Assembly: GCA_025451095.1 (NCBI GenBank)
Contig: JANWLB010000013.1
Span: 4,244-68,243 of the forward strand
Origin: Alphaproteobacteria bacterium
Lineage (GTDB): Bacteria; Pseudomonadota; Alphaproteobacteria; Micavibrionales; Micavibrionaceae
Direction: 5' to 3'
DNA length: 64,000 bases
Part shown: one piece after another, positions 38,518 to 57,083 of the stretch
How the letters are laid out: each line of letters starts with the position of its first letter
How positions within the stretch are numbered: the stretch's first letter is position 1
The notes under the pieces: generated by a model
Databases searched by the model: none
Told to the model about the DNA's origin: nothing
What the model saw: the letters and a program-made list of their open reading frames with translations, nothing else
Program-made: the position numbers and the translations under genes

Positions 38518-39960
<1,443 letters not shown>

Positions 39961-39992
39961 TTAAAATTTCCAAATATCCGGGATACCCGGGC

Positions 39993-40388
39993 TTACATTT
40001 CGGGCCTGAAGCTTTGCGGAGGCCGGGAGCTCGGCGGCGTCAGCGATATCTCCATACTGGCCGTGCGGCGTCCATCCGGCGTGAGATAAGGCAGCTCTGC
40101 CGCACTGATATCCTCATCCGTAATGCCGAGCCGGTCGCCCATGGCAATGAAGGTAGCCATCGTATCAATCATGTCTTCGTCAAGCTCATAGCTCAGCCCG
40201 CCATCAGCTCTTTCCACTTCTTTCGCAAGATCAAAAACCTCGCGCGTGGCAAGAATGAGGCGCTCGCGGCTCAAAGGCTGCTGCAGATGCTCTTTCAGAT
40301 AGTGATGGGCAACCCTCAGAAAGTAGCTGTAGGCCTCGCGGGCGGGATTGCTTTCCTCGTCAAATCTTTTCGTAAGATACTGTGTCAT
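39993..40388 (-). CDS. hypothetical 131-aa acidic protein inside the atp operon
   Basis: Starts 2 nt after the PAP2 stop and ends 47 nt before atpD. No family recognised. Confidence 0.5.
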   Translation of the reverse strand: MTQYLTKRFDEESNPAREAYSYFLRVAHHYLKEHLQQPLSRERLILATREVFDLAKEVERADGGLSYELDEDMIDTMATFIAMGDRLGITDEDISAAELPYLTPDGRRTASMEISLTPPSSRPPQSFRPEM

Positions 40389-40390
40389 GA

Positions 40391-41233
40391 CTACTCTCCT
40401 TTTTTTTCCGCCGGAGGCGCCGTGGGCGTGAACTCCTGCTGCGCCGATGAATAGAGTGCGGCAATCTTCTCACTTTTCAGGATTTCTGGTACCACCGCTG
40501 CGGCCAGAGTCCTGCCGGCTTCGGAATCGCTGGGATAATGAAGCCCTGCGATCTCACGCCGATGCGCTATGTCTAATGCCTTCTTCTCATACACATCTTT
40601 ATGTGCCGGATCAAGCGTTTCCAGCATCAGCGCCGCCGCCCAGCTCTGCCCGGCATGGCCGGAGGGATAGGCGGAATGCGACGGAATCGTAATAACCGGG
40701 GTCAGCTTGTCCGAAAGCTGCGTCGGCCGGGCACGCTGATATTTCCACTTTTCCCGCATGATGAAATGCGACACCTCATGATCAACCAGGCGCAGCAGTT
40801 CGTGTGTATTCCTGTACTGAAAGGCATATTCCACATCCGGTATCACATTGAACTGGCCCGGGAACTGGCCCGGCCGCCCTCTCACAGGGTCCAGCGTCGC
40901 CCCTGCCATTAAAACGACCAGAAATGGCGCCTTTGACGCTTCATAATTGATTGCCTTTATCTCCTCCGGCGTGCGGGCCTCCGCCTGCAGACGCAGAAGC
41001 GCGGCAATTTCCGCCACGGTCTCCGGCGAGTCATTCGCCGGCGCTGGCTTGATATGAACGTCGAATTCGGCCGGAAGATAGGCAGGCGCCTCGTCTTTCA
41101 GCGCCAGTACATCCGGGCCCCAAAGCCCGGATGGGTATTTTACATCATCGGCGGCGGCAGGGCGGACCGTCACCGACAGTACAGCCATCAGCGCGATTGA
41201 AATGCAAACGCCATACTGAACGATGTTTTTCAT
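40391..41233 (-). CDS. secreted class-A PAP2 acid phosphatase
   Basis: Has a signal peptide (..VRPAAADD). All three PAP2 motifs are present: KWKYQRARP (KxxxxxxRP), YPSGH, and RREIAGLHYPSD (RxxxxxHxxxD). Confidence 0.85.
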   Translation of the reverse strand: MKNIVQYGVCISIALMAVLSVTVRPAAADDVKYPSGLWGPDVLALKDEAPAYLPAEFDVHIKPAPANDSPETVAEIAALLRLQAEARTPEEIKAINYEASKAPFLVVLMAGATLDPVRGRPGQFPGQFNVIPDVEYAFQYRNTHELLRLVDHEVSHFIMREKWKYQRARPTQLSDKLTPVITIPSHSAYPSGHAGQSWAAALMLETLDPAHKDVYEKKALDIAHRREIAGLHYPSDSEAGRTLAAAVVPEILKSEKIAALYSSAQQEFTPTAPPAEKKGE

Positions 41234-41544
41234 CCTACATCCAAACGCGCCTCAGGGTGTTTTTCCCTCAGACGCACGCACAGTTTTTCCACGTGGTATC
41301 CCAGAGCGATCAAATCCTGCTGACCCATGCCTACAATACTCAGATTTGCATTTTCCCGCGGATCACCGGAATCCTTCTTCCCCGCTTCCTGTGCCGCGAA
41401 CACCGCTTTTAAGGTGCCCGGCGCATAAGGATCGGTCAACTGAACCATGAATTTTCCTGCTGTCGCGCTGTGATAAAGCTGGAAGTGAAACGCACTTTGG
41501 CTTAAAGCCCCCAGTCCTCTCCAGTCTTTCACCGCCCGCGGCAT
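41230..41544 (-). CDS. hypothetical 104-aa protein immediately after atpG
   Basis: Its ATG lies 1 nt after the atpG stop, and its stop overlaps the PAP2 start (ATGA). No family recognised. Confidence 0.5.
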   Translation of the reverse strand: MPRAVKDWRGLGALSQSAFHFQLYHSATAGKFMVQLTDPYAPGTLKAVFAAQEAGKKDSGDPRENANLSIVGMGQQDLIALGYHVEKLCVRLREKHPEARLDVG

Positions 41545-41545
41545 C

Positions 41546-42481
41546 TTAAATCGCCTCCGCGCCGGAAATGATCTCGATCAGCTCCTTGGTAATGTAAGCC
41601 TGACGCGCGCGGTTATAACGGATCGTCAGGCGGTTGATCAGGTCGCCCGCGTTGCGCGTGGCGTTGTCCATCGCTGTCATGCGCGCCGCCTGTTCGCCCG
41701 CCGCGCTGTCCAGCAGCGCGCGGTAAATCTGGACACCCAGATTGCGCGGCAGAAGCTGGCTCAGGATTTTGTCTTCTTCCGGCTCAAACGCGTAAGGCAC
41801 CGGAAATTGCGGCTTCTCAGCTGTATCCGCTTTCTTCTTTATATTGTCCTGCTCTTTGGTCTTGCCACCCGTCGGGGGTACGGGAGCCGTGAACGGGATC
41901 AATTGCAAACCTGTGGGCTTTTGCACCAGGATCGAGCGGAATTCATTATAAAAGAGCGTGCAAACGTCGAATGTGCCGGCATCAAACTGTTCCAGCACAT
42001 AATGAGCGACCTTAGTGGCCTCCGCGAACGATATTTTCCCCTTGTTATCAAGCCCGACAAAGCTGTTAATGATGCGGTCGCTGAATTCGCGGCGCAGAAC
42101 GTCACGCGCCTTGCGCCCGGCACAGACGACCTTCACCTTTTTACCTTCCCTTTCCAGGCGGCCAATCTCGTTCCGCGCTGCCCGGATCAGGTTTGCATTG
42201 AAACCGCCGCACAGGCCGCGGTCCGATGTGACCACCACCAGAAGATGGGTGTCAGTCCGTCCCGTGCCGATCAGCAGCTTCGGGCTACCCGGACCAATAA
42301 CGACACCTCCGGCTACCCGCGCCATCATGCCCGCCATGGCGGCCGCGTAAGGCTGACTGGCCTCCGCCTGCTCCTGAGCTTTTTTCAGCTTGGACGCGGC
42401 AACCATCTTCATCGCCGAGGTAATCTTCCTCGTCGATTTTACGCTGGCTATCCGGTTTCTGTATTCCTTTAAACTGGGCAT
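41546..42481 (-). CDS. atpG: F1 ATP synthase subunit gamma
   Basis: [32 protein letters not shown] and the C-terminal [14 protein letters not shown]. Contains a Lys-rich insert of about 20 aa ([20 protein letters not shown]). Confidence 0.95.
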
Positions 42482-42499
42482 TAACTTTATGCTCCTGCT

Positions 42500-42844
42500 T
42501 TATACTTTAGGAAAAGGCGGTTGAATAATATGAGACACCGGCTTACCAGAAACTTGCGGATACAGCTTTACCGATCCCGAAGCAACGACCTGGCGCATTT
42601 CTTCACTTTGCAAACTTTCCATCAGTGCTTCCGCGTTTCGAGCGTCATCAGAAAAAACGTTAAACTGGCTTTTTATATCGTCTGCGCGGCGTACATCCTC
42701 GCCGCCCATGGAAAAAATTTTTCTTAGTTCTTCAACAGGCGTGTCATTAACGCATTCCTTGCGCGCACCATATGTCGCCAGAAGATCATCCAGCGCTTTT
42801 ACGGTGCCGCTCTCGAGGTTGCACAGCTTGACGGTTAAAAACAT
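42500..42844 (-). CDS. hypothetical 114-aa acidic protein inserted between atpA and atpG
   Basis: Its ATG lies 3 nt after the atpA stop. The gene is visibly more A/T-rich than its flanks (spot count 27 of 60 G+C in the line at 42601, against 42 of 60 in the atpA line at 43501). Confidence 0.5.
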   Translation of the reverse strand: MFLTVKLCNLESGTVKALDDLLATYGARKECVNDTPVEELRKIFSMGGEDVRRADDIKSQFNVFSDDARNAEALMESLQSEEMRQVVASGSVKLYPQVSGKPVSHIIQPPFPKV

Positions 42845-42847
42845 GTA

Positions 42848-44398
<1,551 letters not shown>

Positions 44399-44456
44399 TT
44401 CTTTTCCTCTTGGCTCTGGAAGTCTATTCTAAAAAAAACTAAAAAGTTAAAAATCC

Positions 44457-45080
44457 TCAGGCCGCCTTATCGGCGCCTGCATTCATCATCGCGCGCTGGA
44501 GACGCTCCAGTTTGCGCTTCACGGAATCATCAATCATGCGGGAGCCGACCGTAACGATCATACCTCCCAGAAGATCCCTGTTCACTTCGACGTTCAGCGC
44601 AACGGCTGAACCTGTCGACTTGCTCAGCTGTTCCTGCAGGGCGCGGGTCTGGGCGGGGGTCAGGGCGTGCGCCGTCTGGACACGCGCCTCAACCTGGCCG
44701 CGGCGGCGGCGCAGTTCGTTGCGGAAAGTGTTGATGATGATCTGGGCAGCGTACAGGCGGCCGTTGCGCGCCAGGACGCCGATGAAATTCTTGGTCAGGG
44801 TATGGAACTGCGCCTTGTCGGCCAGGGCGCTCAAAGCTTTCCTTTGTTTTTCACGGGAAACCAGCGGGCTTTCCAGAAGATTTTGAAGGTCCGGGCTGCT
44901 CCCGAGCATGGCCTGCAGTTCGAGCAAATCTTTTTCAACGTTTTCAAGAGCTTTGGCCTGAGCAGCGATATCGATCAGCGCCACCGCATAACGTGTTGCC
45001 ACAAGACCCGATCCTGTTGAACCTGCTGCCACTTTCCGTGTTCCCCGCACTATGGATGACGTCTGGCGTCGGTTTAGCAT
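44457..45080 (-). CDS. atpH: F1 ATP synthase subunit delta (OSCP)
   Basis: VATRYAVALIDIA... and the C-terminal GGMIVTVGSRMIDDSVKRKL are typical delta/OSCP features. The start is taken at Met28 of the tracked ORF and is uncertain. Confidence 0.85.
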   Translation of the reverse strand: MLNRRQTSSIVRGTRKVAAGSTGSGLVATRYAVALIDIAAQAKALENVEKDLLELQAMLGSSPDLQNLLESPLVSREKQRKALSALADKAQFHTLTKNFIGVLARNGRLYAAQIIINTFRNELRRRRGQVEARVQTAHALTPAQTRALQEQLSKSTGSAVALNVEVNRDLLGGMIVTVGSRMIDDSVKRKLERLQRAMMNAGADKAA

Positions 45081-45226
45081 ATGAATAAGGTGGGGCGCAA
45101 GCTGCGATGTCGGTTTTCCAGCTCTTTTTACGATTGTCTGCGCCTTTCCTCTATGCGACATTTTGAAGACCGCTTATCCCCGTACCGATCCGGGATTTAT
45201 GTCCGGAGTGACAGGCCCTTCACCCT

Positions 45227-47083
45227 ATGCCGCAAGACTTTTCTTCCTGCCACCGCTTCGATGACTTTTCCGCCGTTTTCGCCGCCACGCGGACGCAACC
45301 CCGGGGGAAGGCTTTTCTCACCGCCGGGAGCCATATTCTGACCTATGGCCAGGCCGAAGACCTGACGGCGCGCCTGTGCGGGTTCTTCGCCGAAAAAGGC
45401 CTGCGCCGGGGCGACCGGGCCGTAATCTTAAGTCACGACGATATTGCCGCCGTCACCTTGTTCCTCTCCTGTCTGCGCTTCGGCCTGACTGCTGTCATCA
45501 TCAACCCGGAAGCCAGCCAGGAAGAGCAGGAAAATCTCATAAAGGCGGCCAGAGCCCGTGCTTTATTCGCGGACAAGGCGTTTTTAAGCCCGATTTCATC
45601 CTCCGATATGGTTATTTTGCCAATTTCACCCGGATCCGGGCACAAAAAACCAGGCTTTCTGGCAAAAAAAACGGACAGGCAGGTCTTTCCCCAGCAGATT
45701 TACAACTTTGAGCCGGCAAAAGACCTGCCAGTCATTCCGCTGGATACCGTCGCCTATATTCTGTTTACCTCGGGCACGACCTCCCGGCCCAAGGGGGTGG
45801 AGATCACTCACGGCAATCTTCTGGCCCAGATGAAGACCTTCGTCCGGCACTACGGCTATGATGCCCGCTCTTCCCTTCTGAACATTCTGCCCCTGCATCA
45901 CACTGACGGCCTGACCCAGGGGCCGGTCGTGGCTTTTACCGCCGGATGCAACGTTCACAGGCCTTTCAGATTTTCTATGAACAAACTCCAGAATATTATT
46001 GATTCTGTTTATAAATATAAAATCAGCCATTTCATTGCCGTGCCCGCGATGCTTCAGCTTCTCGACGCCCTCGATGCCGGCGCGAATGATGCCTTCAAAA
46101 CCCCTGATTTCAAATTCGTGATCTCGACAGCCGGCTTTCTCGATCCTCATTTATGGGAGCGGTTTGAAGCGCGATTTGGCGTGATGGTGGTCAATGTCTA
46201 CGGCCTGACTGAAACGGTATGCGAAGCCCTCTATTGCGGTCCCACCCCGGAAACAAGGCGGCCGGGCTCGATCGGCAAGCCGGTTGATACGGAATGCCGG
46301 ATCGTCGGGGAAGACGGCCGGGATCTGCCCGATGGCCAGACCGGGGAGCTGTGGCTCAAAGGCCCCCACATCATGAAGGGTTATTTTGAAATGCCGCAGG
46401 AAACCGCCGAGGTCTTAAGCCCGGACGGCTGGCTCAGGACCGGCGATCTTTGCCGCCGCGATGCTGACGGCTTCTATTACATAGCCGGGCGTAAAAAGAA
46501 CGTCATTATCGTCGGCGGCATGAATATCTATCCCGAAGACGTCGCCAGCGTCCTGCGCCGCCTGCCCGGCATTCTGGACGCCGCCGTCTGGGGCGAAACG
46601 GACCCGACCTGGGGAGAAACCGTCACTGCCGCCGTCATGCCGCAAAAAGGCGTACTCCTTGATCCCGACAAGCTGGGCGCGGCCTTCCTTGAACACGCCG
46701 CGCTCCAGATGCTGCCCCGGCAGATTCACGTGGTTGACGAACTCCCGCGCGGGCCCGCCGGCAAGGTCATCATCCGGGATTTGCGTGAAAAAATTGCAGC
46801 GAAAAGCACAACGCCCGTCAGGGCCAGCGCCACGACGCACGACGATCTGCCGTCCCGGATTATCGCCACAGCGGCCCGCTCTTTCAAATGCCCGCCGGAC
46901 GTATTGAGCCTTGAATCGACGGCAGAGACGACAAAAGGCTGGAACTCTCTCGCCCATATCGAATTCCTGCTTGCTCTTGAAAAGGAGTTCGCCATAAAAA
47001 TCGAACCCCGTGATATACTGAGTGTGCGCTCCCTGGGCGATGCCCTGCGTCTCATTCAGGGTAAAACGAAAAAAGCTGCGTGA
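45227..47083 (+). CDS. adenylate-forming enzyme fused to a C-terminal carrier-protein domain (DltA-DltC-like fusion)
   Basis: Adenylation cores are FTSGTTSRPKG, YGLTET, GRKKNVIIVGGMNIYPEDV and PRGPAGKV. The last 80 aa or so form an ACP-like domain with GWNSLAHIEF, which has Ser in the DSL position. Confidence 0.85.
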   Translation: MPQDFSSCHRFDDFSAVFAATRTQPRGKAFLTAGSHILTYGQAEDLTARLCGFFAEKGLRRGDRAVILSHDDIAAVTLFLSCLRFGLTAVIINPEASQEEQENLIKAARARALFADKAFLSPISSSDMVILPISPGSGHKKPGFLAKKTDRQVFPQQIYNFEPAKDLPVIPLDTVAYILFTSGTTSRPKGVEITHGNLLAQMKTFVRHYGYDARSSLLNILPLHHTDGLTQGPVVAFTAGCNVHRPFRFSMNKLQNIIDSVYKYKISHFIAVPAMLQLLDALDAGANDAFKTPDFKFVISTAGFLDPHLWERFEARFGVMVVNVYGLTETVCEALYCGPTPETRRPGSIGKPVDTECRIVGEDGRDLPDGQTGELWLKGPHIMKGYFEMPQETAEVLSPDGWLRTGDLCRRDADGFYYIAGRKKNVIIVGGMNIYPEDVASVLRRLPGILDAAVWGETDPTWGETVTAAVMPQKGVLLDPDKLGAAFLEHAALQMLPRQIHVVDELPRGPAGKVIIRDLREKIAAKSTTPVRASATTHDDLPSRIIATAARSFKCPPDVLSLESTAETTKGWNSLAHIEFLLALEKEFAIKIEPRDILSVRSLGDALRLIQGKTKKAA

Positions 47084-47095
47084 ACGATTTTCAAC

Positions 47096-48157
47096 ATGAG
47101 CCAGTTTAAAAAAGCCTTTCAGCTTCATAAGCCTCTGCTGATCTTCGGATGGCTTTATGGCGCGCTGATTGCCGTACTGGGGCTTTATATGGGCGCCACG
47201 GCGGACGATTTCGTCGGGATCATGCGCTATTTCATACCCGCCTCCATGACGTCCTTCTTCTTTCCCGTCATCATGCTGCCGTTCTGCCTGTTTTTCGCCA
47301 TCAAAAGCGAAAAGCCGGGCGAGAGATGGCTGCGGCGCGTGATCAACAAATTCGAAGGCAGCCTGGAGAACTATGTACGGAACGGCGGCCTTCATAACGG
47401 GCTGATGACGATGCTGGCCCTGTTTCCCGTGGTCTCTTTCTTCTGCATCGGCAAATCCATGGTGCCCAGCCTGAACACCTATCACATCGATCCCCTGCTC
47501 GCCCGTATCGACCAATTTATTCATTTTGGCCACTATCCACACGAACTCCTGATGCCCTGGATAGAAAAGAACGGACTGGCTCAGGCTGCCGACAACTTAT
47601 ACATCGGCTGGTTTGTCGTCATGTATATAATGACTGAATACTGTACATGGGCGGATACTGACGGGCGCAGGCGTATGCGGCTTCTCTGGACCTACGCCCT
47701 GAGCTGGATCATTATCGGCAACCTCATGGCCATATCCATGGCTTCCGTAGGTCCTATTTACTTCCACCTGTTCTATACCGATATCGCCTCGCCCTATGCT
47801 GATCTCATGCAACATCTTGAGATTCAGAACAAGCTCCAGCCCCTCAAGCTCTACAGCACCGCAGGCGACCTGCTCGGCATGGTAAAAGATGACAAGGTCA
47901 TCAACGTCAACGCCATTTCCGCCATGCCCAGCATGCATGTCGTGATGGCATTTCTGATCTTCCTCTATACACGCTCCATTAATAAATACATCGCCGCACT
48001 CGCCCTGGTTTATTTCTTTCTGATCCTGGGGGCATCGGTTTATCTCGGCTGGCACTACGCAATCGACGGTTATGTGGGAGTCCTGGCCGTCTGGTTCATA
48101 TGGCGCTTCTGCGGCTGGCTGACCACATGGATTGAAGAAAGACAGGCTGCCGGCTGA
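47096..48157 (+). CDS. polytopic PAP2_3-like membrane protein (Aur1/IPC-synthase or sphingomyelin-synthase-like phosphotransferase)
   Basis: Multiple TM helices. AMPSMHV (SxH) and GWHYAIDG (HYxxD) match the C2/C3 motifs of the PAP2_3 / lipid phosphotransferase branch. No KxxxxxxRP motif was seen. Confidence 0.55.
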   Translation: MSQFKKAFQLHKPLLIFGWLYGALIAVLGLYMGATADDFVGIMRYFIPASMTSFFFPVIMLPFCLFFAIKSEKPGERWLRRVINKFEGSLENYVRNGGLHNGLMTMLALFPVVSFFCIGKSMVPSLNTYHIDPLLARIDQFIHFGHYPHELLMPWIEKNGLAQAADNLYIGWFVVMYIMTEYCTWADTDGRRRMRLLWTYALSWIIIGNLMAISMASVGPIYFHLFYTDIASPYADLMQHLEIQNKLQPLKLYSTAGDLLGMVKDDKVINVNAISAMPSMHVVMAFLIFLYTRSINKYIAALALVYFFLILGASVYLGWHYAIDGYVGVLAVWFIWRFCGWLTTWIEERQAAG

Positions 48158-49326
48158 TGTTCGTCCTGACCGGCTTCTGGTTATGCACCCTCGCCGGCGT
48201 CACGCTCATACACTGGATTTTGCCCGAAAGATGGCGGGGCTGGTGGCTGGCACTGGCCTCGGCCGCTTTTTTAGGCTGGCTTTCACCCCTGTCGCTCGCT
48301 TTTTTGTCCGGCCTGACTCTGGCCATCTATTTTCTGACGGCGAAGGCTGAACGTATTTCAGGGCGCAAACTTCTGATCCTCATCGCGCTGGCTGGCGGCC
48401 TTCTGGCACTCTGCAAGACGCATATGGCCCTGATCCAGCCGGTAGCCGATCTTGGCGCGGCAGGCAACGGTGATATTCTCATTCCTCTGGGCCTGTCCTA
48501 CTACACCCTGCGCTGCCTTCATTACGGCATAGAAAAATGCAAAGGCACGATTCCGGCACATCCCTTCCGGGATTTTATTTTTTATATCTTCTATCTGCCG
48601 ACATTCATGACCGGTCCGATCCACCGTTTTCCCGCCTTTGAAAAAGATATGCGGCGCAAGCGCTGGGACCCGTTTGTGTTCGCCCGCGGCCTTGAACGAA
48701 TTCTGTTCGGCTACGTTAAAATATGTTTTTGCGCCAATCTCCTCGCAACAGGCGTTTTTGGACAGCTCATCGAAACTCATGCCGTCGCCGGCGGCAGTCT
48801 CGAGGCCTGGCTGCTGATGATACAAAACGGGATAACGCTTTATTTCCAGTTCGCGGGCGCCTCCGATATCGCGATCGGCTTTGGTCTTCTTCTTGGATTC
48901 AATGTCATGGAAAATTTCAATTTTCCTTTCCTGGCGCGCAATATTTCTGATTTCTGGACCCGCTGGCATATATCACTGACCAGCTGGTGCCGCGACTATG
49001 TTTACATGGGCACGGCAGCGGTGACGCGCAATACCATGCTCGCGGCCCTGGCCTCGATGCTGGCCATGGGGCTCTGGCATGAAGTATCGTGGCGCTATCT
49101 GATCTGGGGCCTTTATCAGGGCGCCGGCATCCTGATCTGGCAGAAATTCCAGACCCTGAAGCCGCATTTGCCGCGCTCTGAAAACAAATATGTGCACAGC
49201 GCCGCAAGAGCCGGCTCGACAATTCTCACGCTTCTGTACGTCATGCTGGCGATGTACTTCGTGCGCTTCAGCAGCCTTGAAGAGTCTTTTTCACAGGCCG
49301 CTAAAATCGTTCTGCCCTGGCGCTGA
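48157..49326 (+). CDS. MBOAT-family O-acyltransferase, DltB-sized
   Basis: GLSYYTL, PTFMTGPIHRF, FAGASDIAIG, NFNFPFLARNISDFWTRWHISLTSWCRDYVY and GLWHE (catalytic His). 389 aa, which is DltB-like rather than AlgI-like in length. Confidence 0.9.
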   Translation: MFVLTGFWLCTLAGVTLIHWILPERWRGWWLALASAAFLGWLSPLSLAFLSGLTLAIYFLTAKAERISGRKLLILIALAGGLLALCKTHMALIQPVADLGAAGNGDILIPLGLSYYTLRCLHYGIEKCKGTIPAHPFRDFIFYIFYLPTFMTGPIHRFPAFEKDMRRKRWDPFVFARGLERILFGYVKICFCANLLATGVFGQLIETHAVAGGSLEAWLLMIQNGITLYFQFAGASDIAIGFGLLLGFNVMENFNFPFLARNISDFWTRWHISLTSWCRDYVYMGTAAVTRNTMLAALASMLAMGLWHEVSWRYLIWGLYQGAGILIWQKFQTLKPHLPRSENKYVHSAARAGSTILTLLYVMLAMYFVRFSSLEESFSQAAKIVLPWR

Positions 49327-49394
49327 ATTGACAGGAAAGACGAAAGCCTATATCCGGTTAGGAATAATAATAATAATAAAACTGGACAGGAAAA

Positions 49395-50354
49395 ATGTTT
49401 CACTCGCTGGCAAAAAGCGCGGCCCGCCTGGGCGTTGCCGAAGCCCTTATCTTCAGTCTGGCAGGAACCGGTTGCCTGCCGGCGCTTAAGACCACGCCCG
49501 CCGCCGACTGCAGCCGCTACGTCCGCGCGCGCGCGGAGGCTGCTTCCGTCCCCGCCCCGAAAAACGCGCGTGACTTTTTGTCCGCCAATGTTCAGGGTCT
49601 GCCTTTCGGGCTCGACAACCTCAGTCGCAAGACGCCTTATCCGCCCAACAGGTTTGAATGTCTGGGCGAGATCGCCTCCGCCTATGACATAGCTGTGTTT
49701 CAGGAAGACTGGCAGGATAATCAGAAACTCACCGGAAATCATCCCTATCGCCTGTCCGCCAAGCCTTCTGACTCTCTCTTTCGCGCCGGATCGGGCCTTA
49801 CCCTGCTTTCACGGGAGCCTTTCACGGAGGTGCGGGATATCCCATTTAAAAACTGCAGCGGGGGCCATGAAATTGTCCTTTATGCCTGGGCAAAAGCTGT
49901 CGGCTTCCCTGCAAAATGGACAGAGAGATTTAATACCAAGGCGGATTGCTTTGCCACGAAGGGCTTTCGCCTGACGCGAACCGGCAACCTTATGCTGGTC
50001 AACAGCCATCTCGATGCCGGCAACACTTCAAGGGATTCGCGGGCACGCGCCAGCCAGCTTGAGCAGATCACGGAAAAATTGCCTAAATCCATTCCGCTTC
50101 TGATTGCCTTCGATGCCAATCTCAAGAGCAACATCCCCCGGGACGAAGACTCGCTGGCCCGATTTCTGCGTGAAAACGATCTGAAAATTGCCCTGCGCAA
50201 TAAAACCGATCTCATTCTCTATCGCGGCCTGACCGTCAAGAACGTGCATACGGTCGATCTGACCGATCTTAGCGATCATAACGGCCTGGCGCTGACCTTT
50301 ATGCTTCCGCAATCCACAGCGCCACCCACACCCCAGGTCAGGCCGGCACCCTAA
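49395..50354 (+). CDS. endonuclease/exonuclease/phosphatase (EEP) family protein, neutral-sphingomyelinase-like; probable lipoprotein or secreted
   Basis: Signal-like N-terminus with ..SLAGTGC. EEP blocks are DIAVFQEDW, LVNSHLDAG, IAFDANL and the terminal DLSDHNG. Confidence 0.7.
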   Translation: MFHSLAKSAARLGVAEALIFSLAGTGCLPALKTTPAADCSRYVRARAEAASVPAPKNARDFLSANVQGLPFGLDNLSRKTPYPPNRFECLGEIASAYDIAVFQEDWQDNQKLTGNHPYRLSAKPSDSLFRAGSGLTLLSREPFTEVRDIPFKNCSGGHEIVLYAWAKAVGFPAKWTERFNTKADCFATKGFRLTRTGNLMLVNSHLDAGNTSRDSRARASQLEQITEKLPKSIPLLIAFDANLKSNIPRDEDSLARFLRENDLKIALRNKTDLILYRGLTVKNVHTVDLTDLSDHNGLALTFMLPQSTAPPTPQVRPAP

Positions 50355-50401
50355 AAAAACGCCTTATAAGACAGAGCCGGCGTGATATACTGGATGCCGC
50401 C

Positions 50402-50545
50402 ATGAAACTATACAGCTTCCTTCGGCAAAGATTCTCTCCCGGCGACGCCGCCATACTGACCGGCGCCTGGTATGCCCTGCTTTTGTTCCTCGTATTTCTC
50501 GGACTCTCCCAGCAAGGGGTGGATTTGCGCTATGCCCACTTCTGA
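50402..50545 (+). CDS. 47-aa single-TM micro-protein, DltX-like (MKLYSFLRQRFSPGDAAILTGAWYALLLFLVFLGLSQQGVDLRYAHF)
   Basis: Hand translation; the ORF is below the track's size cutoff. One TM helix followed by a C-terminal aromatic hexapeptide LRYAHF, with Tyr at -4 and Phe at -1. Overlaps the sulfotransferase start by 14 nt. The SD is weak. Confidence 0.4.
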   Translation: MKLYSFLRQRFSPGDAAILTGAWYALLLFLVFLGLSQQGVDLRYAHF

Positions 50546-51437
50546 AACGCAAGGGATCATTATTCTGGGCGTGCCCCGGTCAGGCACAACCCTGCTGCGC
50601 CGCCTGCTTGACGCCCATCCCGCGCTCTGCTGCCCCGGTGAGACTTTTTTGTTCCGCGGCTGCGCCCGCTTTCTCGAACATGATGTCATTTCCTCAGGAT
50701 TCGATTACGGCGTGCTGGGCGCCCTGGAAGGTCTGGGCTATCAGCGCGGCGACGTCACGGCCCGCCTGCGCCGCTTCGTAACACAGTTTTACGAAGAACT
50801 GGCGCAAAAAGCCGGAAAACCACGGTGGGCCGCGAAAACCGCGGTCGACAGTTTTTACCTGCCGCAGATCGAGGAGCTTTTCACCGGCCATGCCCGCTTT
50901 ATCTGCCTGACCCGCCACGGGCTTGATGTAGTTTGCAGCATGGATGAGTTCTCCCGCGATCTGCAGACCTATATAAGCGAGATTCACGACTATACAAAAC
51001 GCTATCCCCGCCCCTTTGAGGCCTTCGCCCATGCCTGGGCCGATGTGACCGGCGCGCTTCTTGATTTTGCGCAGCGCCATAAAAGCGACTGTCATCAGCT
51101 GCGCTACGAAGACCTGGTGAAGAACCCCGATTCTGAGCTTAAGAAAATCACAGACTTTCTTAAACTGCCCGCCCTGCCAAAGGCTGCGGACATACTGGCA
51201 AACAAAACGCTTGATGGCATTGGTGACTGGAAATCATACAAGAAAACGAAAATGGAAACCGCCGCCGTCGGACGCTGGAGCCAGCAACTGCCCGACGCCA
51301 CCATCGAAGCACTGGCCCCCATCGTTAATCCCGCATTGGTCCGTGCGGGCTATGAAGCTGTGTCGGCCGGCAGCGCCGAGGATCAGAAACGCCGGCAGGA
51401 ACTGGCCCGCATGATGATGCAGGCCCGCGACGCCTAG
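50532..51437 (+). CDS. sulfotransferase-family protein
   Basis: From Met21 of the tracked ORF: IIILGVPRSGTTLLRRLL (5'-PSB PAPS-binding loop) and RYEDLV (3'-PB region). Confidence 0.8.
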   Translation: MPTSETQGIIILGVPRSGTTLLRRLLDAHPALCCPGETFLFRGCARFLEHDVISSGFDYGVLGALEGLGYQRGDVTARLRRFVTQFYEELAQKAGKPRWAAKTAVDSFYLPQIEELFTGHARFICLTRHGLDVVCSMDEFSRDLQTYISEIHDYTKRYPRPFEAFAHAWADVTGALLDFAQRHKSDCHQLRYEDLVKNPDSELKKITDFLKLPALPKAADILANKTLDGIGDWKSYKKTKMETAAVGRWSQQLPDATIEALAPIVNPALVRAGYEAVSAGSAEDQKRRQELARMMMQARDA

Positions 51438-52372
51438 CGCGGCAACCAGTCGTCCGTGATCTTTTTATTGAGCCACGACGTGAAAACCTTGCGCCCTGTA
51501 GCGTTTAAATGCACGTCATCGCAAAACTGGGTGGATTCATCCGGCGCCTGATATGAGTCCCACTTTAAATCGCTGTAGAGTCCCGGCAGAAGCTGTTCCG
51601 GCGTGGGATAAAAACCCAGCCCGTGAAAATCAACAAGATCGAGCGGGATGGCGTAGCGCGCCATAAGATCCGTATAGGGCCTGAGATTGAGCACCACAAC
51701 CCTGATACCCGCCGCCCGCGCCTGCCGCAGGAAATTCTGTGCCATCACATAGCCCTGATTTTCTTTTATCAGGCTGTGATGGTCCTTTTTCATGAAAGAA
51801 ATGCGCTGCGCCATATAGGCTTTATCAAAACGCGCTTCGCATTGAATCAAAAGCGTATGCCGGTCCGCGCTCCATTCGCGTCTTTCGTCGTAACGGGTCA
51901 ATATCTTGCGAAAATAATCCACGACAATTCCGGAGATTTTAACCAGCTTTGGGCTGGCTCCCGGCGCATTTGAAATAACACTATTCTGGATAACGATCAG
52001 GTCGGGATGGGCGCGCAATATATAGGGCGTCAGCGCATCATACAGATCGAACCGCCCTGCATTATAGGCGAACTGCAGAACAGCCATGCGGCGGCCATCG
52101 GGCAGGCGAATAATGCTGTCAGGGTCAACGCCTTCAGTCGTCGCATGGCGCAGGCGTGAATTTCCCAGCAGAATGACGCCAATGTCTGATTTTTCTTTCG
52201 CTTTCTCAAACTTACTTATGATTTCTGCATTGAAGTCGTTGGCGATATAGCGGCTCATATTCCTTTCGCCTGCCATGAAAAAACTGACAGCGATCATGTC
52301 GGCCGCCAGAATCAGCGCCCACAAAAAGGACCAGAAATACTTTTTTTCGTATTTTAAAAGAGGTTCAGCCAT
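51434..52372 (-). CDS. membrane-anchored SGNH/DltD-like esterase-acyltransferase
   Basis: N-terminal TM (FWSFLWALILAADMIAVSFF), block I-like LLGNSR, and block V-like DDVHLNATG. The start is taken at Met19 (MAEPLL). The family call is tentative. Confidence 0.5.
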   Translation of the reverse strand: MAEPLLKYEKKYFWSFLWALILAADMIAVSFFMAGERNMSRYIANDFNAEIISKFEKAKEKSDIGVILLGNSRLRHATTEGVDPDSIIRLPDGRRMAVLQFAYNAGRFDLYDALTPYILRAHPDLIVIQNSVISNAPGASPKLVKISGIVVDYFRKILTRYDERREWSADRHTLLIQCEARFDKAYMAQRISFMKKDHHSLIKENQGYVMAQNFLRQARAAGIRVVVLNLRPYTDLMARYAIPLDLVDFHGLGFYPTPEQLLPGLYSDLKWDSYQAPDESTQFCDDVHLNATGRKVFTSWLNKKITDDWLPR

Positions 52373-52382
52373 AAAGCCCGAC

Positions 52383-53186
52383 CTAAACTCCCGTCGGCGA
52401 AAGCAGCTTCCAGTCCATAAAAACAAAGCGCTCCGGCTCCAGCATCACGCCCATAAGCTTGAGAAGCAACAGATGAAGCACATAAATTTCGAGCGTGCGG
52501 CGGCCCATGATTTTGAGCAGGCCGGTCAGCGGAAAGGGCAAAGCCTTCGTCAGTCGCGGGAACGTCAGGGGCCTGAAGAAGTACAGAGCCGTCATGACAG
52601 CCGTGATGCCAAGAGCCAGCACCCTGAACTGCGGCGCTGAAAAGCCAAAAAAAAGTTCCTGAAGGGCGACAAAGCTTATAAGCGCAAAGGCAAGATATTG
52701 CTGTGGCAGTCCGCCGGGAACGCGCGCGTCGTCCTTGTTACGCATCACCCAGCCGTAAATGGCCATTATGAGAGCATGCGTCCCGTACTCGACGGCAAGA
52801 CTTGTAGGGATGGCCAGTATAAAAAGAAAGGCTATCCCGGCCCAGAAGTCGCGCCTGCTTTTAAGGGCGTGTTTCAGGAAAGGATCGAGCGCCATCCTTA
52901 CAAACAGCATCGTCGCCATAATATTGGCCGGCAGGATACTCATCCCGGCCGGCACGTTGGCCGCCAGAAGAATCGAGCAGCCGATCCAGAGCCTTTTGCC
53001 CGTATCCCGGCTTCGCGCGTAACCGATCAGAAAAAACCAGATCGGCACGCACAGGCGCCCGGCAACACGCCACCAGTTGTCATCAGGATAAAAATAATAG
53101 CCGACATGATCCACGATCATCAACATCACGGCCAGGGCCTTGAGAAGATCGTACGACGTCAGATCGCGGGGGAGCGTTTTTGTCAT
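52383..53186 (-). CDS. TraX-family membrane (acyl)transferase, copy 1
   Basis: SYDLLKALAVMLMIVDHVG matches the TraX N-terminal motif (compare F-plasmid TraX ..DIIKTVALVLMVLDHAN). Polytopic. Confidence 0.7.
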   Translation of the reverse strand: MTKTLPRDLTSYDLLKALAVMLMIVDHVGYYFYPDDNWWRVAGRLCVPIWFFLIGYARSRDTGKRLWIGCSILLAANVPAGMSILPANIMATMLFVRMALDPFLKHALKSRRDFWAGIAFLFILAIPTSLAVEYGTHALIMAIYGWVMRNKDDARVPGGLPQQYLAFALISFVALQELFFGFSAPQFRVLALGITAVMTALYFFRPLTFPRLTKALPFPLTGLLKIMGRRTLEIYVLHLLLLKLMGVMLEPERFVFMDWKLLSPTGV

Positions 53187-53190
53187 GGCG

Positions 53191-53967
53191 CTATCCGTAA
53201 GCCTGTCTGTAGGCGGCAAACGCCATAAAAAGAATGAAGTGAACGACATAAACCGCCAGCGTGTAGCGGCCCATGAAACGCACCAGAGGCGCCAGCGTCC
53301 AGGAAAGCGCCCGGGTCAGGCCGGGAAAGACCATAGGCCTGAAACTGTAAAGACTGACCAGGACGGTAGCGCTGCCAAGAAAAGTCGCCATGGATTGAAA
53401 AACGGAAAACTGGAACAGCACCGATTGTATCAGCGTAAATACCAGCACACAGAAAATCGTATAAGGGAAGATCAGCGTTATTCGTTTGCGCGGATCGTCG
53501 GAAAAATGGCGGACGATATAGCCAAAAACCGCCAGAATGAGCCCCAGCGTTCCGTATTCGGTCAGAAGATTGGTCGGCACCGCCAGAATGGCAAGAAGCA
53601 GCGCCGCAGCCCAGAAAATCAGCGGGTGTTTGAGCACCCAGCGCATGTAGGTGTCCAGAACCATACGAATGAACAGGATGTTGAACAGGATCGTCAGCGA
53701 CCAGATCCTGTGCTGGATCAGATAACGGGCCGCAGCCACGAGCGTCCCCGCCGCCCAGATATGAATCCCGATATCGCGACTGCGCGCATAGCCGATCAGG
53801 AAGAACCACATCGGCACGCAATACCGGCCGACAACACGAAACCACAATTCCTGCGGGTAAAAGAACGCACCCACGTGATCGACGATCATCAGAATGACGG
53901 CCAGCGTCTTGAGAAGGTCGTAACTGGTCAGGGTCTGTGATGGCGGGGCAACCGTCTGGGTCATCAC
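53191..53967 (-). CDS. TraX-family membrane (acyl)transferase, copy 2
   Basis: SYDLLKTLAVILMIVDHVG...VPMWFFLIGYARSRD is nearly identical to the N-terminal third of copy 1. Stops 4 nt before the copy 1 start. Confidence 0.7.
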   Translation of the reverse strand: MMTQTVAPPSQTLTSYDLLKTLAVILMIVDHVGAFFYPQELWFRVVGRYCVPMWFFLIGYARSRDIGIHIWAAGTLVAAARYLIQHRIWSLTILFNILFIRMVLDTYMRWVLKHPLIFWAAALLLAILAVPTNLLTEYGTLGLILAVFGYIVRHFSDDPRKRITLIFPYTIFCVLVFTLIQSVLFQFSVFQSMATFLGSATVLVSLYSFRPMVFPGLTRALSWTLAPLVRFMGRYTLAVYVVHFILFMAFAAYRQAYG

Positions 53968-54047: not shown

Positions 54048-54800
54048 ATGCTTTATTCCTTGCGCGCCCGATGGGCTTTTGCCCGGACACAACCGCATCC
54101 CGCCGACCCCTGCGTGCGACTGACGGATAATCCGGGCGATCTGGTCGCCATCCATCACCCCAACGTCCGGGCCGTCATCTGGCAGAGACCTTTGAACGAG
54201 GACATCAGAAACGATTTGAGAAATATCGATCACAGCAATTTTCTTATAAGAACCCGACTGGATGTGCCTGATGTTTTCCTTGCGCCCGGATTTCGACGGA
54301 TCACGACTGATCACTTAAGTCCCCAATCTCGCCCGCCACCCAGTATAGAAAAAGACGTCATCCTGTTGGCCGACGTCTTTCGCAGAGCCCATGGACTGCC
54401 TTTTCACCACCACAAAAATAGCCTGGGCCTGCAGACACGTCCTTTGAAGGATCCAAACGCGCCCGACTTTGTATTTTTAAGCTTTGTCATTCCTCACTTT
54501 GATGGATTCCACACCAGAATGGTTACCAACTATTCTCTGGATGAAGAGATGGGCACCATATGGTTTCCGGGCGATTACACCTATGAACAGGTGGAAAATC
54601 TCAAAACGAAACTCCGAAGCAACGAAGAAAAGTTACTGGAAAATATTCAAATCGCGATGAAAGAACACAATGCCCAACACATCACGCCGGGAGATGTTCT
54701 CTTCCTGAAAGGCCATTTGCATAGAAGCCGGAAATGGCTTCTGCACTGTCCGCCACCCCTGAAACCGGATGTCGTCCGCCTGACTCGTCTTTATCCCTGA
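54048..54800 (+). CDS. hypothetical protein (A/T-rich gene; possibly DUF1826-like, unverified)
   Basis: 250-aa ORF with AGGA 8 nt upstream of the ATG. By eye the second half is markedly A/T-richer than priA next door. Confidence 0.45.
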   Translation: MLYSLRARWAFARTQPHPADPCVRLTDNPGDLVAIHHPNVRAVIWQRPLNEDIRNDLRNIDHSNFLIRTRLDVPDVFLAPGFRRITTDHLSPQSRPPPSIEKDVILLADVFRRAHGLPFHHHKNSLGLQTRPLKDPNAPDFVFLSFVIPHFDGFHTRMVTNYSLDEEMGTIWFPGDYTYEQVENLKTKLRSNEEKLLENIQIAMKEHNAQHITPGDVLFLKGHLHRSRKWLLHCPPPLKPDVVRLTRLYP

Positions 54801-54803
54801 CTC

Positions 54804-57083
54804 CTAAAGAAAACTTTGCGGATCGATATCGACGGAGATACGCACTGTCGAGGGCACTTTCAACTGCGCCAACCAGCCTTCAATCGATTTCTGAAGATTG
54901 ACGTTCTTGTCCGCGCGCACCAGAAGGCGGCGGCGGTAATTCCCGCGCAGCCGGTAGAAAGGTGCCTCCGCCGGGCCGAGCGTCTGGATTCCCTGCCCCT
55001 GCGGCGCGCATTTTCCGGCTTCGATCGCCATATCCATGACCTGTTGTTCATCCTTGCCGAAAACAATGATCCCGGCCAGTCGGCTGTAGGGTGGCATATG
55101 CGATGTCTCGCGCTCATGCGCCTCAATCTCGAGGAAACGGTCGCGGTCATGGGCGGCCAGCGCCTGCATAACCTTGTTGCCCGGCAACCACGTCTGAAGA
55201 TACACGCGGCCCGGCAGGGCTTCACGCCCGGCGCGCCCCGCCACCTGATGCAGAAGCTGGAACGTGCGCTCTGCCGCGCGCAGATCGCCGCCCTGCAGTC
55301 CCAGATCGGCATCAACCACGCCGACCAGGGTGAGATCCGGAAAGTGATGTCCCTTGGCGATGATCTGTGTGCCGATAATAATGTCGTATTGATGCTCCCG
55401 GATATCGCTCAGGATTTTTGAGAGCTCCTCATGCGTGCCCGCTGTGTCACTGGCCAGGACAATCGTGCGGGCCTGCGGAAAATATTCTTTTACCTCTTCC
55501 AGTATGCGCTCCACGCCAGGCCCGCAGGCGCTTAGCGAGTCTTCCTCGCCGCAGGAGCTGCATTTTTTCGGCAGGCTCGCCATATAGCCGCAATGATGGC
55601 ATTGCAGGCGGCCGGTCCGCCGGTGCTCGACCAGCCACGCGGTGCAGCGCGGGCATTCCATGCGATGACCGCAGGTCCGGCACAGAGTCAAAGGCGCATA
55701 GCCGCGCCGGTTTAAAAACAGCAGGCTTTGCTCTCCCGCCTCCAGATTGGCCTGCAGCGCCGCCTTCAGCGAGGGCGCGATGAAATGCTGCCGGTCCGGT
55801 TTATCCTTCTTCATGTCGATCATGTGCATGTCGGGCAGCTTTGCCCCGCCATGCCGGTCGGGCAGATGAAGATGCGCGTAGCGCCCGGTCCAGACATTGA
55901 CCATCGTTTCCAGCGACGGCGTGGCCGAAACCAGAATCACGGGGATTTTTGACAGATGCGCCCGCACAATCGCCATGTCGCGCGCATGATAGATGACTCC
56001 GTCTTCCTGCTTGTAGGCGGGGTCGTGCTCCTCATCGAGGACGATCGCGCCCAGATCGGCATAGGGCAGGAACAGGGCCGACCGCGCCCCGACCACAACT
56101 TTTGTATGCCCCTCCGCCACGCCGCGCCACGTGTTGCGCCGCCGGGCGGGCGACAACGAAGAATGCCAGAGCGCAGGGGCGCAACCGAAACGCTGCCGGA
56201 AACGGTCAAGAAAGGCATTTGAGAGGGCAATTTCCGGCAGCAGGATGAGAGCCTGCTTCCCCTGACGCAGCGCCTCCGCGACCGCCTCGAAATAAACTTC
56301 CGTCTTGCCAGCGCCGGTCACGCCGTCCAGCAGCGCCGCATAATATCCGCCAGCCGTAACGTGCTGGCGCAGCTGGGCGGCCACGCCTTCCTGCGTCGGC
56401 GACAGAGTGACGCCTGTCTTGCCGGGATCGGGATGGCGGCAGGGCGCGGGTGTATGGATAGCCACCGGCACCAGAAGATTCAGCCCCGCCAGACCCTTGA
56501 CCACTGCGGGCGTACAAGCAGCGGCTTCGGCGATTTCAGAGGCGCGGCGCGGCTGACCATCCTTTAGAACCTCAAGGATGCGGCGGCGGGCCGGGGAAAG
56601 ATTTTTCAGGAGTCGCCGGCCGTCATCCTCCGCCCGCAAAGCCTCGCGGGCCGTTTCCGACAGGACATAGCCGGTCGCCGGATCGGGCGGCGCGAGGGCT
56701 GCGAACACGGGCAGCGCCATTTTCAGAACCGCACCAGCCGATGCCATATTATATTGAGCCACCCAATCCAGAAAACGGCGATTCACCTCCGGCATGGGGG
56801 GCAGATCGTGACGGGCCAAGACGGACTTAAGCTTGAGTTTACGCTTTGCTGCCGTGACCTCCGGGGATGCCGCTTCCGCCGCCTTGTCCCAGACAACCCC
56901 CGGCACCTCGCGGCTGCCGAGAGGCACGGTCACATAGTCGCCCGGCTGCAGCGACAGCCCTTCGGGCACGGCATAGCTGTAGGCCTTGTCCACAGGATAC
57001 GGCACCAGAACCGTTGCCTGGACCGCGTCCGCACCGGCCTGCGGCGCGGGCGCCTCTTCTGCTCCTTGAAAAAGTGTCCGCAT
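54804..57083 (-). CDS. priA: primosomal replication protein N' (PriA helicase)
   Basis: [11 protein letters not shown] (Walker A), LDEEHD, and the Cys-rich zinc module [21 protein letters not shown]...CHHCG. Confidence 0.95.

Follow-up and report, generated by a model that had tools for sequence, protein, structure and literature searches.

A proposed Dlt-like acyl relay cassette with a linked sulfotransferase in an alphaproteobacterium and other diderm bacteria

The locus and the recurrence of its core genes

We analysed a stretch of 64,000 nucleotides from an alphaproteobacterium of the family Micavibrionaceae (NCBI GenBank assembly GCA_025451095.1, contig JANWLB010000013.1, positions 4,244 to 68,243 of the forward strand), here called the window. 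Between its positions 45,227 and 53,967 lie nine genes in two convergent sets (Table 1), five of which are the core of a recurring cassette: a ligase that ends in a carrier domain, a DltB-like membrane-bound O-acyltransferase (MBOAT), a microprotein with a C-terminal tyrosine, a membrane-anchored SGNH-like protein and a sulfotransferase. All functional parts of a Dlt-type relay are present, namely activation with a carrier, an MBOAT, a Tyr microprotein and an extracytoplasmic SGNH-like putative transferase, as had been proposed in an earlier reading of the DNA letters without database searches (the sequence-only reading). Both the Dlt-like relay and its link to the sulfotransferase are strongly supported.

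The loci compared were the best matches to the window MBOAT, and their frequencies describe this MBOAT subfamily and not bacteria at large. At least 160 loci were found on one-genome-per-species contigs and metagenome contigs, to which contigs from exact-protein look-ups were added; after deduplication 156 were distinct. The cassette of ligase, MBOAT, microprotein and SGNH-like protein recurs in at least 156 distinct loci, a clustering far beyond chance, and the sulfotransferase accompanies it in 47 of them, with the orthologous ligase located 5' of the MBOAT in most loci. The block of nine genes as a whole, which the sequence-only reading had treated as one pathway, is not conserved. Based on record titles the hosts include Alpha-, Beta-, Gamma- and Deltaproteobacteria, Bacteroidota, Planctomycetota, Nitrospinota and Verrucomicrobiota. 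Each cassette is self-contained, and the neighbourhoods vary, with no conserved acceptor-synthesis genes nearby, which suggests that the acid and the acceptor are both common cell components. One contig of a metagenome-assembled genome (MAG) labelled Acidimicrobiales (L010, CALLPT010000144.1) was found to hold a complete sulfotransferase-type cassette. The label is actinobacterial and presumably monoderm; the contig may have been assigned to the wrong bin, or else the acceptor is one that does not require an outer membrane.

In the window the two gene sets are flanked by atpH (44457-45161) and priA (54804-57083), both on the minus strand, a position shared by close relatives. The spacing between the plus-strand genes is, in gene order, 12 nt, a 1-nt overlap, 68 nt, 47 nt and a 14-nt overlap, and the gap from the TraX gene to the 312-aa gene is 10 nt. 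The stop codons of the convergent sets overlap at 51434-51437, where the two operons had been expected to meet. The close spacing and the overlaps fit an arrangement in two operons. All nine open reading frames (ORFs) of the sequence-only reading exist at or near the positions it gave, with two starts corrected: that of the sulfotransferase was revised to the ATG at 50532, which accounts for its overlap with the microprotein stop, and that of the SGNH-like gene to 52372. The revised sulfotransferase and 312-aa proteins are identical to the existing gene calls for the contig, in which the 47-aa ORF is called as well. For TraX paralogue 1 the true start is probably an internal Met near 53186. 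The motifs that had been quoted are all present (FTSGTTSRPKG, GWNSLAH, SMH, HYAID, RWHISL, GLWHE, SDH, PRSGTT and RYEDL), and searches with Pfam hidden Markov models (HMMs) confirmed the AMP-binding, carrier, PAP2_3, MBOAT, Exo_endo_phos, Sulfotransfer and TraX assignments.

Table 1. Genes of the locus, with positions counted from the first letter of the window
Gene product	Position	Strand	Basis or remark
Ligase-carrier fusion, 618 aa	45227..47083	+	Pfam AMP-binding, AMP-binding_C, PP-binding
Polytopic PAP2_3 protein, 353 aa	47096..48157	+	Pfam PAP2_3; lineage-specific accessory gene
DltB-like MBOAT, 389 aa	48157..49326	+	Pfam MBOAT
EEP-fold phosphodiesterase, exported, probable lipoprotein, 319 aa	49395..50354	+	Pfam Exo_endo_phos; accessory, this window only
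Single-pass microprotein, 47 aa, C-terminus ...DLRYAHF	50402..50545	+	Existing gene call
PAPS-type sulfotransferase, cytoplasmic, 301 aa	50532..51437	+	Pfam Sulfotransfer_3, Sulfotransfer_1
Membrane-anchored SGNH-like putative transferase, 312 aa	51434..52372	-	Conserved residues, weak fold matches, gene position
TraX-family membrane acyltransferase, paralogue 1	52383..53249	-	Pfam TraX; lineage-specific
TraX-family membrane acyltransferase, paralogue 2	53191..53967	-	Pfam TraX; lineage-specific

The Pfam-scanned flanks contain housekeeping genes (class I LysRS, XerC-like integrase, lipoamide dehydrogenase, anthranilate synthase and a DinG-like helicase), consistent with a chromosomal site; the class I LysRS and the labels of related MAGs make an alphaproteobacterial origin plausible. 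Megablast of the 8.7-kb region against plasmids returned nothing, and tblastn of the MBOAT against plasmids returned only distant MBOATs of other types, with at most 39% identity. No teichoic-acid genes were found among the Pfam-scanned flanking genes, only the smaller part of the sequence upstream of 26.9 kb being covered by the annotation. A scan of the locus for promoter and terminator consensus sequences performed no better than on shuffled sequence, and an Rfam scan of the locus detected no riboswitch or other RNA element.

Upstream, the minus strand carries at 38518-45161 an F-type ATP synthase operon (atpH, atpA, atpG, atpD) that is broken up by extra ORFs: one of 114 aa (42500-42844), one of 104 aa (41230-41544) and an exported PAP2 phosphatase-like gene (40391-41233) between atpG and atpD. 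None of the three has a homologue in any related locus compared; in L001 and L002, two loci from related MAGs, the atp operons hold extra ORFs too, but different ones. In these two loci (L001:14944-17846, L002:14995-17885) and on the P0128 contig, one or two Spermine_synth-domain genes (~480-500 aa) stand beside TraX and before priA, a position taken in the window by a DUF1826 gene (54048-54800). The closest relative from the genome collection (L006, JBBKWU010000015.1) has the same atpH ... priA synteny but bears the label 'Bdellovibrionales bacterium'. The labels of further close relatives read Alphaproteobacteria, and the taxonomy of this MAG clade looks unsettled.

Proteins of the predicted relay

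The ligase was matched by the Pfam families AMP-binding (236.7 bits) and AMP-binding_C (38.5 bits), and its residues 544-609 by PP-binding, with 21.4 bits barely over the cut-off of 20.8. The carrier phosphopantetheine serine lies in GWNSL (residue 574), and a GW[DNTS]S[LMF] motif is kept in the last 95 aa of 84 of the 94 ligase orthologues, which conserve the fusion; the carrier is a C-terminal ligase domain and not a free-standing DltC. The best NCBIfam models of the ligase were long-chain-fatty-acid-, malonyl- and other acyl-CoA ligases, with every score below the cut-off, and its best PDB relatives were plant oxalate-CoA ligases and a bacterial malonyl-CoA synthetase (E 2e-57 to 1e-52). 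DltA was absent from its 60 best PDB matches, and by these comparisons the protein is not a DltA-type D-alanine--carrier protein ligase. As it resembles oxalyl-, malonyl- and fatty-acyl-CoA ligases and not DltA, an amino-acid cargo is unlikely, contrary to the amino-acid ester that the sequence-only reading had kept as an option. The cargo is probably not an amino acid, and since the ligase does not look like an amino-acid activator, a simple carboxylic acid is more likely. The likeness to oxalyl- and malonyl-CoA ligases faintly hints at an acid that is small and polar.

The MBOAT scored 76.4 bits against the Pfam family. Its only curated family match was the DltB model TIGR04091, at 173 bits under the cut-off of 375, which places it outside the DltB equivalog; its only PDB sequence relatives were DltB structures (8jem and 6bug, E 1e-32). 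The histidines of RWHISL and GLWHE align with those of DltB, and H271 and H308 are invariant. Relatives of the protein number in the hundreds at 40-59% identity. At its C-terminal end (...KIVLPWR) the MBOAT is without a Tyr shuttle motif.

Such a motif is found on the microprotein, which has one transmembrane (TM) segment. An equivalent small ORF with one TM segment and the ending Yxx[hydrophobic] was detected in 110 of the 142 loci that have at least 250 nt downstream of the MBOAT, and in 102 of the 142 this ORF lies directly 3' of the MBOAT. When 31 diverse microproteins were aligned, with the consensus MYxxL..WY..(TM)..FRYxx[W/Y/L/M/F], the sole invariant residue was the Tyr four residues from the C-terminus. 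Its context, [F/L]xYxx[hydrophobic]-COOH, puts it at the same position as the acyl-shuttle Tyr in the FxYxxF motif published for DltX (PMC12148441). From the positive charge of the N-terminus an N-in, C-out topology is predicted. We propose that the microprotein shuttles the acyl group in the manner of DltX and accepts it on Tyr44. It did not match the Pfam DltX model or the PDB chains of DltX, and its profile matched designed transmembrane proteins only. Sulfation of the near-invariant N-terminal Tyr of the microprotein was also considered, and rejected because cassettes that lack a sulfotransferase conserve this residue just as well. On one JGI contig (P0014, sample 3300056388) two 47-aa microprotein genes were found, together with an extra 329-aa ORF without Pfam hits, in opposite orientation between the MBOAT and the sulfotransferase.

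The 312-aa protein gave no significant sequence match in Pfam, NCBIfam or the PDB, even with profiles built from 12 and 60 sequences. In a search of 1.84 billion representative proteins its family comprised 307 representative clusters, all of ~300 aa. Among 60 diverse members G70, S72 and D285 were the only invariant residues and H288 was conserved in more than 90%. S72, D285 and H288 form a candidate triad, in a GxS ... DxxH pattern as in SGNH hydrolases. The structure model (predicted local distance difference test, pLDDT, 82.9) has a membrane helix at the N-terminus and then an alpha/beta domain; the best natural Foldseek matches of the model, all weak, were the SGNH esterases 3mil (E 3e-3, probability 0.95), 7ddy and 2wab. 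Sub-threshold Pfam matches of the relatives fall in SGNH-clan families (E 0.006-0.07); DltD (PF04914) was matched, likewise below threshold, by one of the 60 (E 0.07). On the conserved Ser/Asp/His pattern, the weak fold matches and the gene position we accept the protein as SGNH-like and do not assign it to the DltD family. It had been called SGNH- or DltD-like from the sequence; the HMM search suggested there as a check did not bear the call out, and its SGNH part stands on these weaker grounds and on the sub-threshold matches.

The SGNH-like family was found in most loci, mostly immediately 5' of the MBOAT. In 22 loci (including L011, L013, L015, L023, L039, L040, L043, L046, L054 and L055) the MBOAT is flanked in its place by another family, here called U3 (~370 aa, FLGDS ... 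DxxH, no Pfam hit), which is a remote homologue of the SGNH-like family (hhalign probability 97%, E 8e-11). One or the other partner is present in 65 of the 67 loci with complete flanks. BLASTP between the window SGNH-like protein and the 338-aa neighbour in Minwuia was not significant, the subfamilies being linked by profile methods only.

The sulfotransferase and lineage-specific additions

The sulfotransferase exceeded the cut-offs of Sulfotransfer_3 (103.5 bits) and Sulfotransfer_1 (56.6 bits); it has the motifs PRSGTT, CPGE and RYEDL and no TM segment. Its nearest solved relative was the CurM sulfotransferase (4gbm, E 2e-11), followed by the tyrosylprotein sulfotransferases TPST1/2 (~5e-9) and then the olefin-synthase (OLS) sulfotransferase (E 1e-6). 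The PRSGTT loop for 3'-phosphoadenosine-5'-phosphosulfate (PAPS), the R..S 3'-phosphate motif and the CPGE catalytic Glu align with the CurM sulfotransferase and TPST2, and the protein has the loop, the 3'-phosphate motif and the catalytic base of a PAPS-dependent sulfotransferase. CurM-type sulfotransferases act on the hydroxyl of carrier-bound beta-hydroxyacyl groups.

The 47 sulfotransferase genes counted among the 156 loci lie within 4 kb of the MBOAT and occur in three gene orders, frequently translationally coupled and placed between ligase and MBOAT. In a neighbour-joining tree of the MBOATs the sulfotransferase loci formed a few contiguous blocks, with uniform gene order within each. 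Loci without the sulfotransferase mostly carry a second AMP-binding gene upstream, and the two are nearly mutually exclusive (both present in 1 locus, sulfotransferase only in 11, second AMP-binding gene only in 43, neither in 7; Fisher p = 6.6e-7). Nine long versions of the second gene were compared (L058 (4495-7188), L018, L022, L024, L048, L057, L067, L020 and L027). The N-terminal region gave a weak Methyltransf_11 match in seven of them, once above the Pfam cut-off, and a radical-SAM/SPASM match in place of the methyltransferase-like one in L027. The exchange of the sulfotransferase for the second AMP-binding gene suggests alternative ways of tailoring the cargo in the cytoplasm, and we regard functional integration of the sulfotransferase in the cassette as likely. 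In the third gene order (L096, L112, L113, L117 and L134) sulfotransferase, MBOAT and microprotein are followed by a downstream AMP-binding gene, much diverged from the window ligase (E 1e-15 to 1e-27).

The PAP2_3, TraX and EEP genes had been taken as partners of the relay, and did not prove to be conserved ones: PAP2_3 recurs in one related lineage, TraX in three loci and EEP in none. By co-occurrence they are lineage-specific additions and not core genes, and their links to the cassette are weak. The PAP2_3 protein scored 66.5 bits (PF14378, cut-off 27) and has six TM-like segments and the motifs PSMH and WHYAIDGY, which we take to resemble those of phospho-alcohol transferases of the Aur1/sphingomyelin-synthase type. 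Its insertion between ligase and MBOAT was otherwise seen only in L086/L087, with an MBOAT 57% identical to that of the window, and in no other of the 156 loci. The EEP protein (Exo_endo_phos, 29.6 bits) has an N-terminal signal with a conserved Cys, and its canonical catalytic residues N/E/H/D/N/D-H are all invariant. Its model, of moderate quality (pLDDT 73.9), was closest in Foldseek to neutral and bacterial sphingomyelinases (E 2e-11), with Tdp2 and AP endonucleases almost as close (TM ~0.5). An EEP gene near the MBOAT was found in none of the other cassette loci among the 156, and EEP homologues were rejected as cassette partners, the three closest (47-55% identity) being located in unrelated neighbourhoods. 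PDB sequence searches with the EEP and PAP2_3 proteins gave nothing useful apart from a marginal LpxE match.

Both TraX paralogues were over the TraX cut-off of 25 (PF05857): paralogue 1 scored 51.8 bits for TraX and 48.4 bits for Acyl_transf_3, paralogue 2 39.5 and 33.4 bits. Against the equivalog models of F-type pilin acetylase they scored far below the cut-offs. TraX genes were found in 3 of the 156 distinct loci, and these are close relatives. In the window, L001, L002, L086 and the P0014 and P0128 contigs a TraX gene (paralogue 1 in the window) is located immediately 5' of the SGNH-like gene.

Proposed mechanism and comparison with known systems

The conserved unit shares four functions with DltA plus DltC, DltB, DltX and DltD, and this makes a Dlt mechanism the most economical explanation. 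In that mechanism the acyl group passes from a carrier thioester, by MBOAT transfer, to the Tyr of a microprotein, from there to the Ser of an SGNH-like protein and finally to an acceptor hydroxyl (PMC12148441). We propose that the cassette is a Dlt-type carrier-dependent acyl relay across the inner membrane, rebuilt with different entry chemistry, and give this reading a probability of about 0.5; that the relay has four parts is, taken by itself, very probable. From the domain identities, the conserved catalytic residues and the gene linkage we infer the chemical steps, the cargo and the acceptor as follows. The ligase, of the ANL type, would adenylate a non-amino carboxylic acid, probably small and hydroxylated or dicarboxylic, and load it on the phosphopantetheine arm of its own carrier. 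The sulfotransferase would then sulfate the cargo with PAPS, most likely while it is carrier-bound. At the periplasmic face the MBOAT would hand the acyl group on to the microprotein, where Tyr44 accepts it, and the SGNH-like protein would receive it on Ser72 and esterify a periplasmic or outer-leaflet acceptor.

In the window lineage PAP2_3, EEP and TraX probably prepare or further modify the acceptor, and they hint at a phospholipid-like head group in that role. The PAP2_3 protein, the EEP lipoprotein and TraX may serve in the preparation of a phospho-alcohol head group, or may add a second (acetyl-type) ester via the shared SGNH-like protein. A bolder version of the proposal, unlikely as a whole, is that many diderm bacteria have a relay, including a Tyr microprotein of its own, that moves an acyl group tailored in the cytoplasm from the ligase-fused carrier to the envelope; in about one third of the cassettes found this group would be an O-sulfated hydroxy-acid, so that an anionic sulfate ester is installed from the periplasmic side; PAP2_3 and EEP of the window lineage would build or trim the phospho-alcohol head group of an acceptor lipid as a minimal teichoic-acid-like target. 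No pathway known to us adds sulfate esters in this way.

Several points weigh against the proposed relay. The functions of the cassette are, for every member, predicted from the genes, and a sulfated acyl group may not fit a DltB-type tunnel. TPST nearly equals the CurM sulfotransferase in score (39 vs 47 bits), which makes the substrate class ambiguous. The SGNH-like fold match is weak (best real E 3e-3, TM ~0.3) and DltD was not among the top structural matches; nor has the microprotein detectable sequence homology to DltX. In the window lineage the SGNH-like gene is operonic with TraX and not with the MBOAT, and the P0128 contig carries the TraX/SGNH-like pair with no MBOAT within ~6 kb. 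Co-occurrence, finally, does not support a linkage of PAP2_3 or EEP to the cassette.

Within the relay, the place of sulfation can be read in two ways. We favour the donor side, that is, the cargo on the carrier, a tentative choice held at slightly less than even odds, because the sulfotransferase is cytoplasmic and tightly linked, is swapped with a cytoplasmic tailoring enzyme and is nearest to enzymes that sulfate carrier-bound hydroxyacyl groups. The same relay could instead have its sulfotransferase on the acceptor side, where it would sulfate the acceptor or a lipid-linked precursor at the cytoplasmic face, with sulfate and acyl ester as separate decorations of one envelope molecule. This is unlikely, though a serious competitor: the sulfotransferase is about equally similar to tyrosylprotein sulfotransferases and the CurM sulfotransferase, it has a weak NCBIfam match to NoeE (family name: nodulation protein), an enzyme that presumably acts on a glycan, and the gene order of the window type puts it after the microprotein and not beside the ligase. 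However, acceptor sulfation sits poorly with self-contained cassettes that have no conserved acceptor-synthesis genes nearby. The exchange for a cytoplasmic second AMP-binding protein, mostly methyltransferase-like in its long versions, looks like tailoring of the cargo, and the sulfotransferase is often translationally coupled between ligase and MBOAT.

The cassette might also produce a separate lipid or a small molecule that is secreted, such as a sulfated acyl-ester lipid on a head group remodelled by PAP2_3 and EEP, and not decorate an existing envelope polymer. The PSMH and WHYAIDGY motifs of PAP2_3 and the sphingomyelinases at the top of the structural matches of EEP would agree with this, and CurM-type sulfotransferases are natural-product enzymes. 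We consider it improbable, as PAP2_3 and EEP are missing from nearly all cassettes and the location between atpH and priA is a housekeeping one. Known MBOAT-SGNH systems, moreover, act on envelope polymers (PMC12148441).

Quite improbable is that two independent systems abut in the window, in which case TraX and the SGNH-like protein would be a split AT3-SGNH O-acetyltransferase using acetyl-CoA, and the plus-strand operon would work without this SGNH-like protein. The TraX proteins do match Acyl_transf_3 too, and the TraX and SGNH-like genes are always adjacent and co-oriented in the clade, as in the pair on the P0128 contig without an MBOAT nearby. Outside the clade, however, dozens of loci have the SGNH-like family right next to the MBOAT and no TraX, nearly all complete cassettes (65 of 67) have an SGNH-like or U3 partner, and the plus-strand operon of the window holds no other candidate extracytoplasmic transferase. 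Canonical aminoacylation of the dlt or dra kind, with a D-Ala or Gly ester lowering the envelope charge and protecting against cationic peptides, shares the four-part architecture of Dlt and a best curated MBOAT family in DltB, but is hardly credible, given a ligase that groups with acyl-, malonyl- and oxalyl-CoA ligases with no DltA in its 60 best PDB matches, a fused carrier in place of free DltC, a DltB score of 173 far under 375, and a linked sulfotransferase that would add negative charge and not take it away.

Dlt is regarded as a speciality of Gram-positive bacteria. A carrier-dependent relay of MBOAT, Tyr microprotein and SGNH-like protein, as proposed here, would span several diderm phyla, with entry chemistry unlike that of Dlt and with swappable tailoring modules, and specialists would be surprised to meet a sulfotransferase and a DltX-like microprotein in a Dlt-like relay of Gram-negative bacteria. 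The repeated linkage of a sulfotransferase to a Dlt relative suggests that many diderm bacteria probably acylate their envelope, possibly with a sulfated group. If so, diderms would have an uncharacterised class of envelope esters, possibly sulfated, with a bearing on surface charge, on interactions with phages and antimicrobial peptides, and on lipidomics. Since cultured strains carry the cassette (with a second AMP-binding gene Spirosoma panaciterrae DSM 21099, Niabella hirudinis DSM 25812, Donghicola tyrosinivorans DSM 100212 and Oceaniradius stylonematis; of the sulfotransferase type Minwuia thermotolerans and Novosphingobium, the latter with a locus of the L029 type), direct testing is possible.

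Compared with Dlt (dltXABCD), the cassette has in common an adenylating enzyme, a phosphopantetheinyl carrier, a DltB-type MBOAT with the same His residues, a ~45-aa single-pass microprotein whose C-terminus has the Tyr of xYxx(hydrophobic), and a membrane-anchored SGNH-like putative transferase with Ser/Asp/His residues. It differs in that its ligase is of the acyl-/malonyl-/oxalyl-CoA type with a fused carrier, its microprotein and SGNH-like protein are without detectable sequence homology to DltX and DltD, and it includes a sulfotransferase or, alternatively, a second AMP-binding protein. Its hosts, moreover, are by record titles mostly diderm lineages, which to our knowledge do not make teichoic acid.

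With PatA/PatB-type MBOAT-SGNH systems the cassette shares an MBOAT, a periplasmic SGNH-type transferase and the acyl-Tyr shuttle motif. [quoted passage not shown] According to the 2025 PatAB paper, MBOAT pathways other than Dlt are without a DltX-like microprotein (PMC12148441).

Esterification of a Gram-negative envelope component in a carrier-dependent way would be common to the cassette, to AlmEFG of Vibrio cholerae and to the Bordetella dra locus. AlmG belongs to the LpxL-type lipid A acyltransferases, and the AlmEFG system is not known to have an MBOAT, microprotein or SGNH protein, whereas the dra locus uses DltA-type activation. No LpxL-type (AlmG-like) domain was found among the nine genes with Pfam or NCBIfam, and we know of no sulfotransferase, PAP2_3, EEP or TraX gene that belongs to either AlmEFG or dra. 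The locus is distinct from both and from Dlt proper, in agreement with what had been read from the sequence.

The PAPS loop, Arg/Ser 3'-phosphate motif and catalytic Glu are shared with the CurM and olefin-synthase sulfotransferases; the cassette enzyme, in contrast, is free-standing, with no thioesterase partner and no polyketide synthase, and in the cassette the sulfate may be kept and not eliminated. TraX is known as a pilin acetylase, and the two paralogues of the window, matching TraX and Acyl_transf_3 directly upstream of the SGNH-like gene, look like a split AT3-SGNH protein. AT3-SGNH O-acyltransferases are single bifunctional enzymes (PMC12148441), whereas the window proteins are separate and duplicated, occur in only three cassette loci and have no conjugation genes nearby. 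Full-text literature searches, which covered open-access texts only, found no description of such a cassette; one may exist elsewhere. Based on these comparisons, the cassette is a widespread variant of the Dlt/MBOAT-SGNH relay, previously undescribed in the open-access literature searched.

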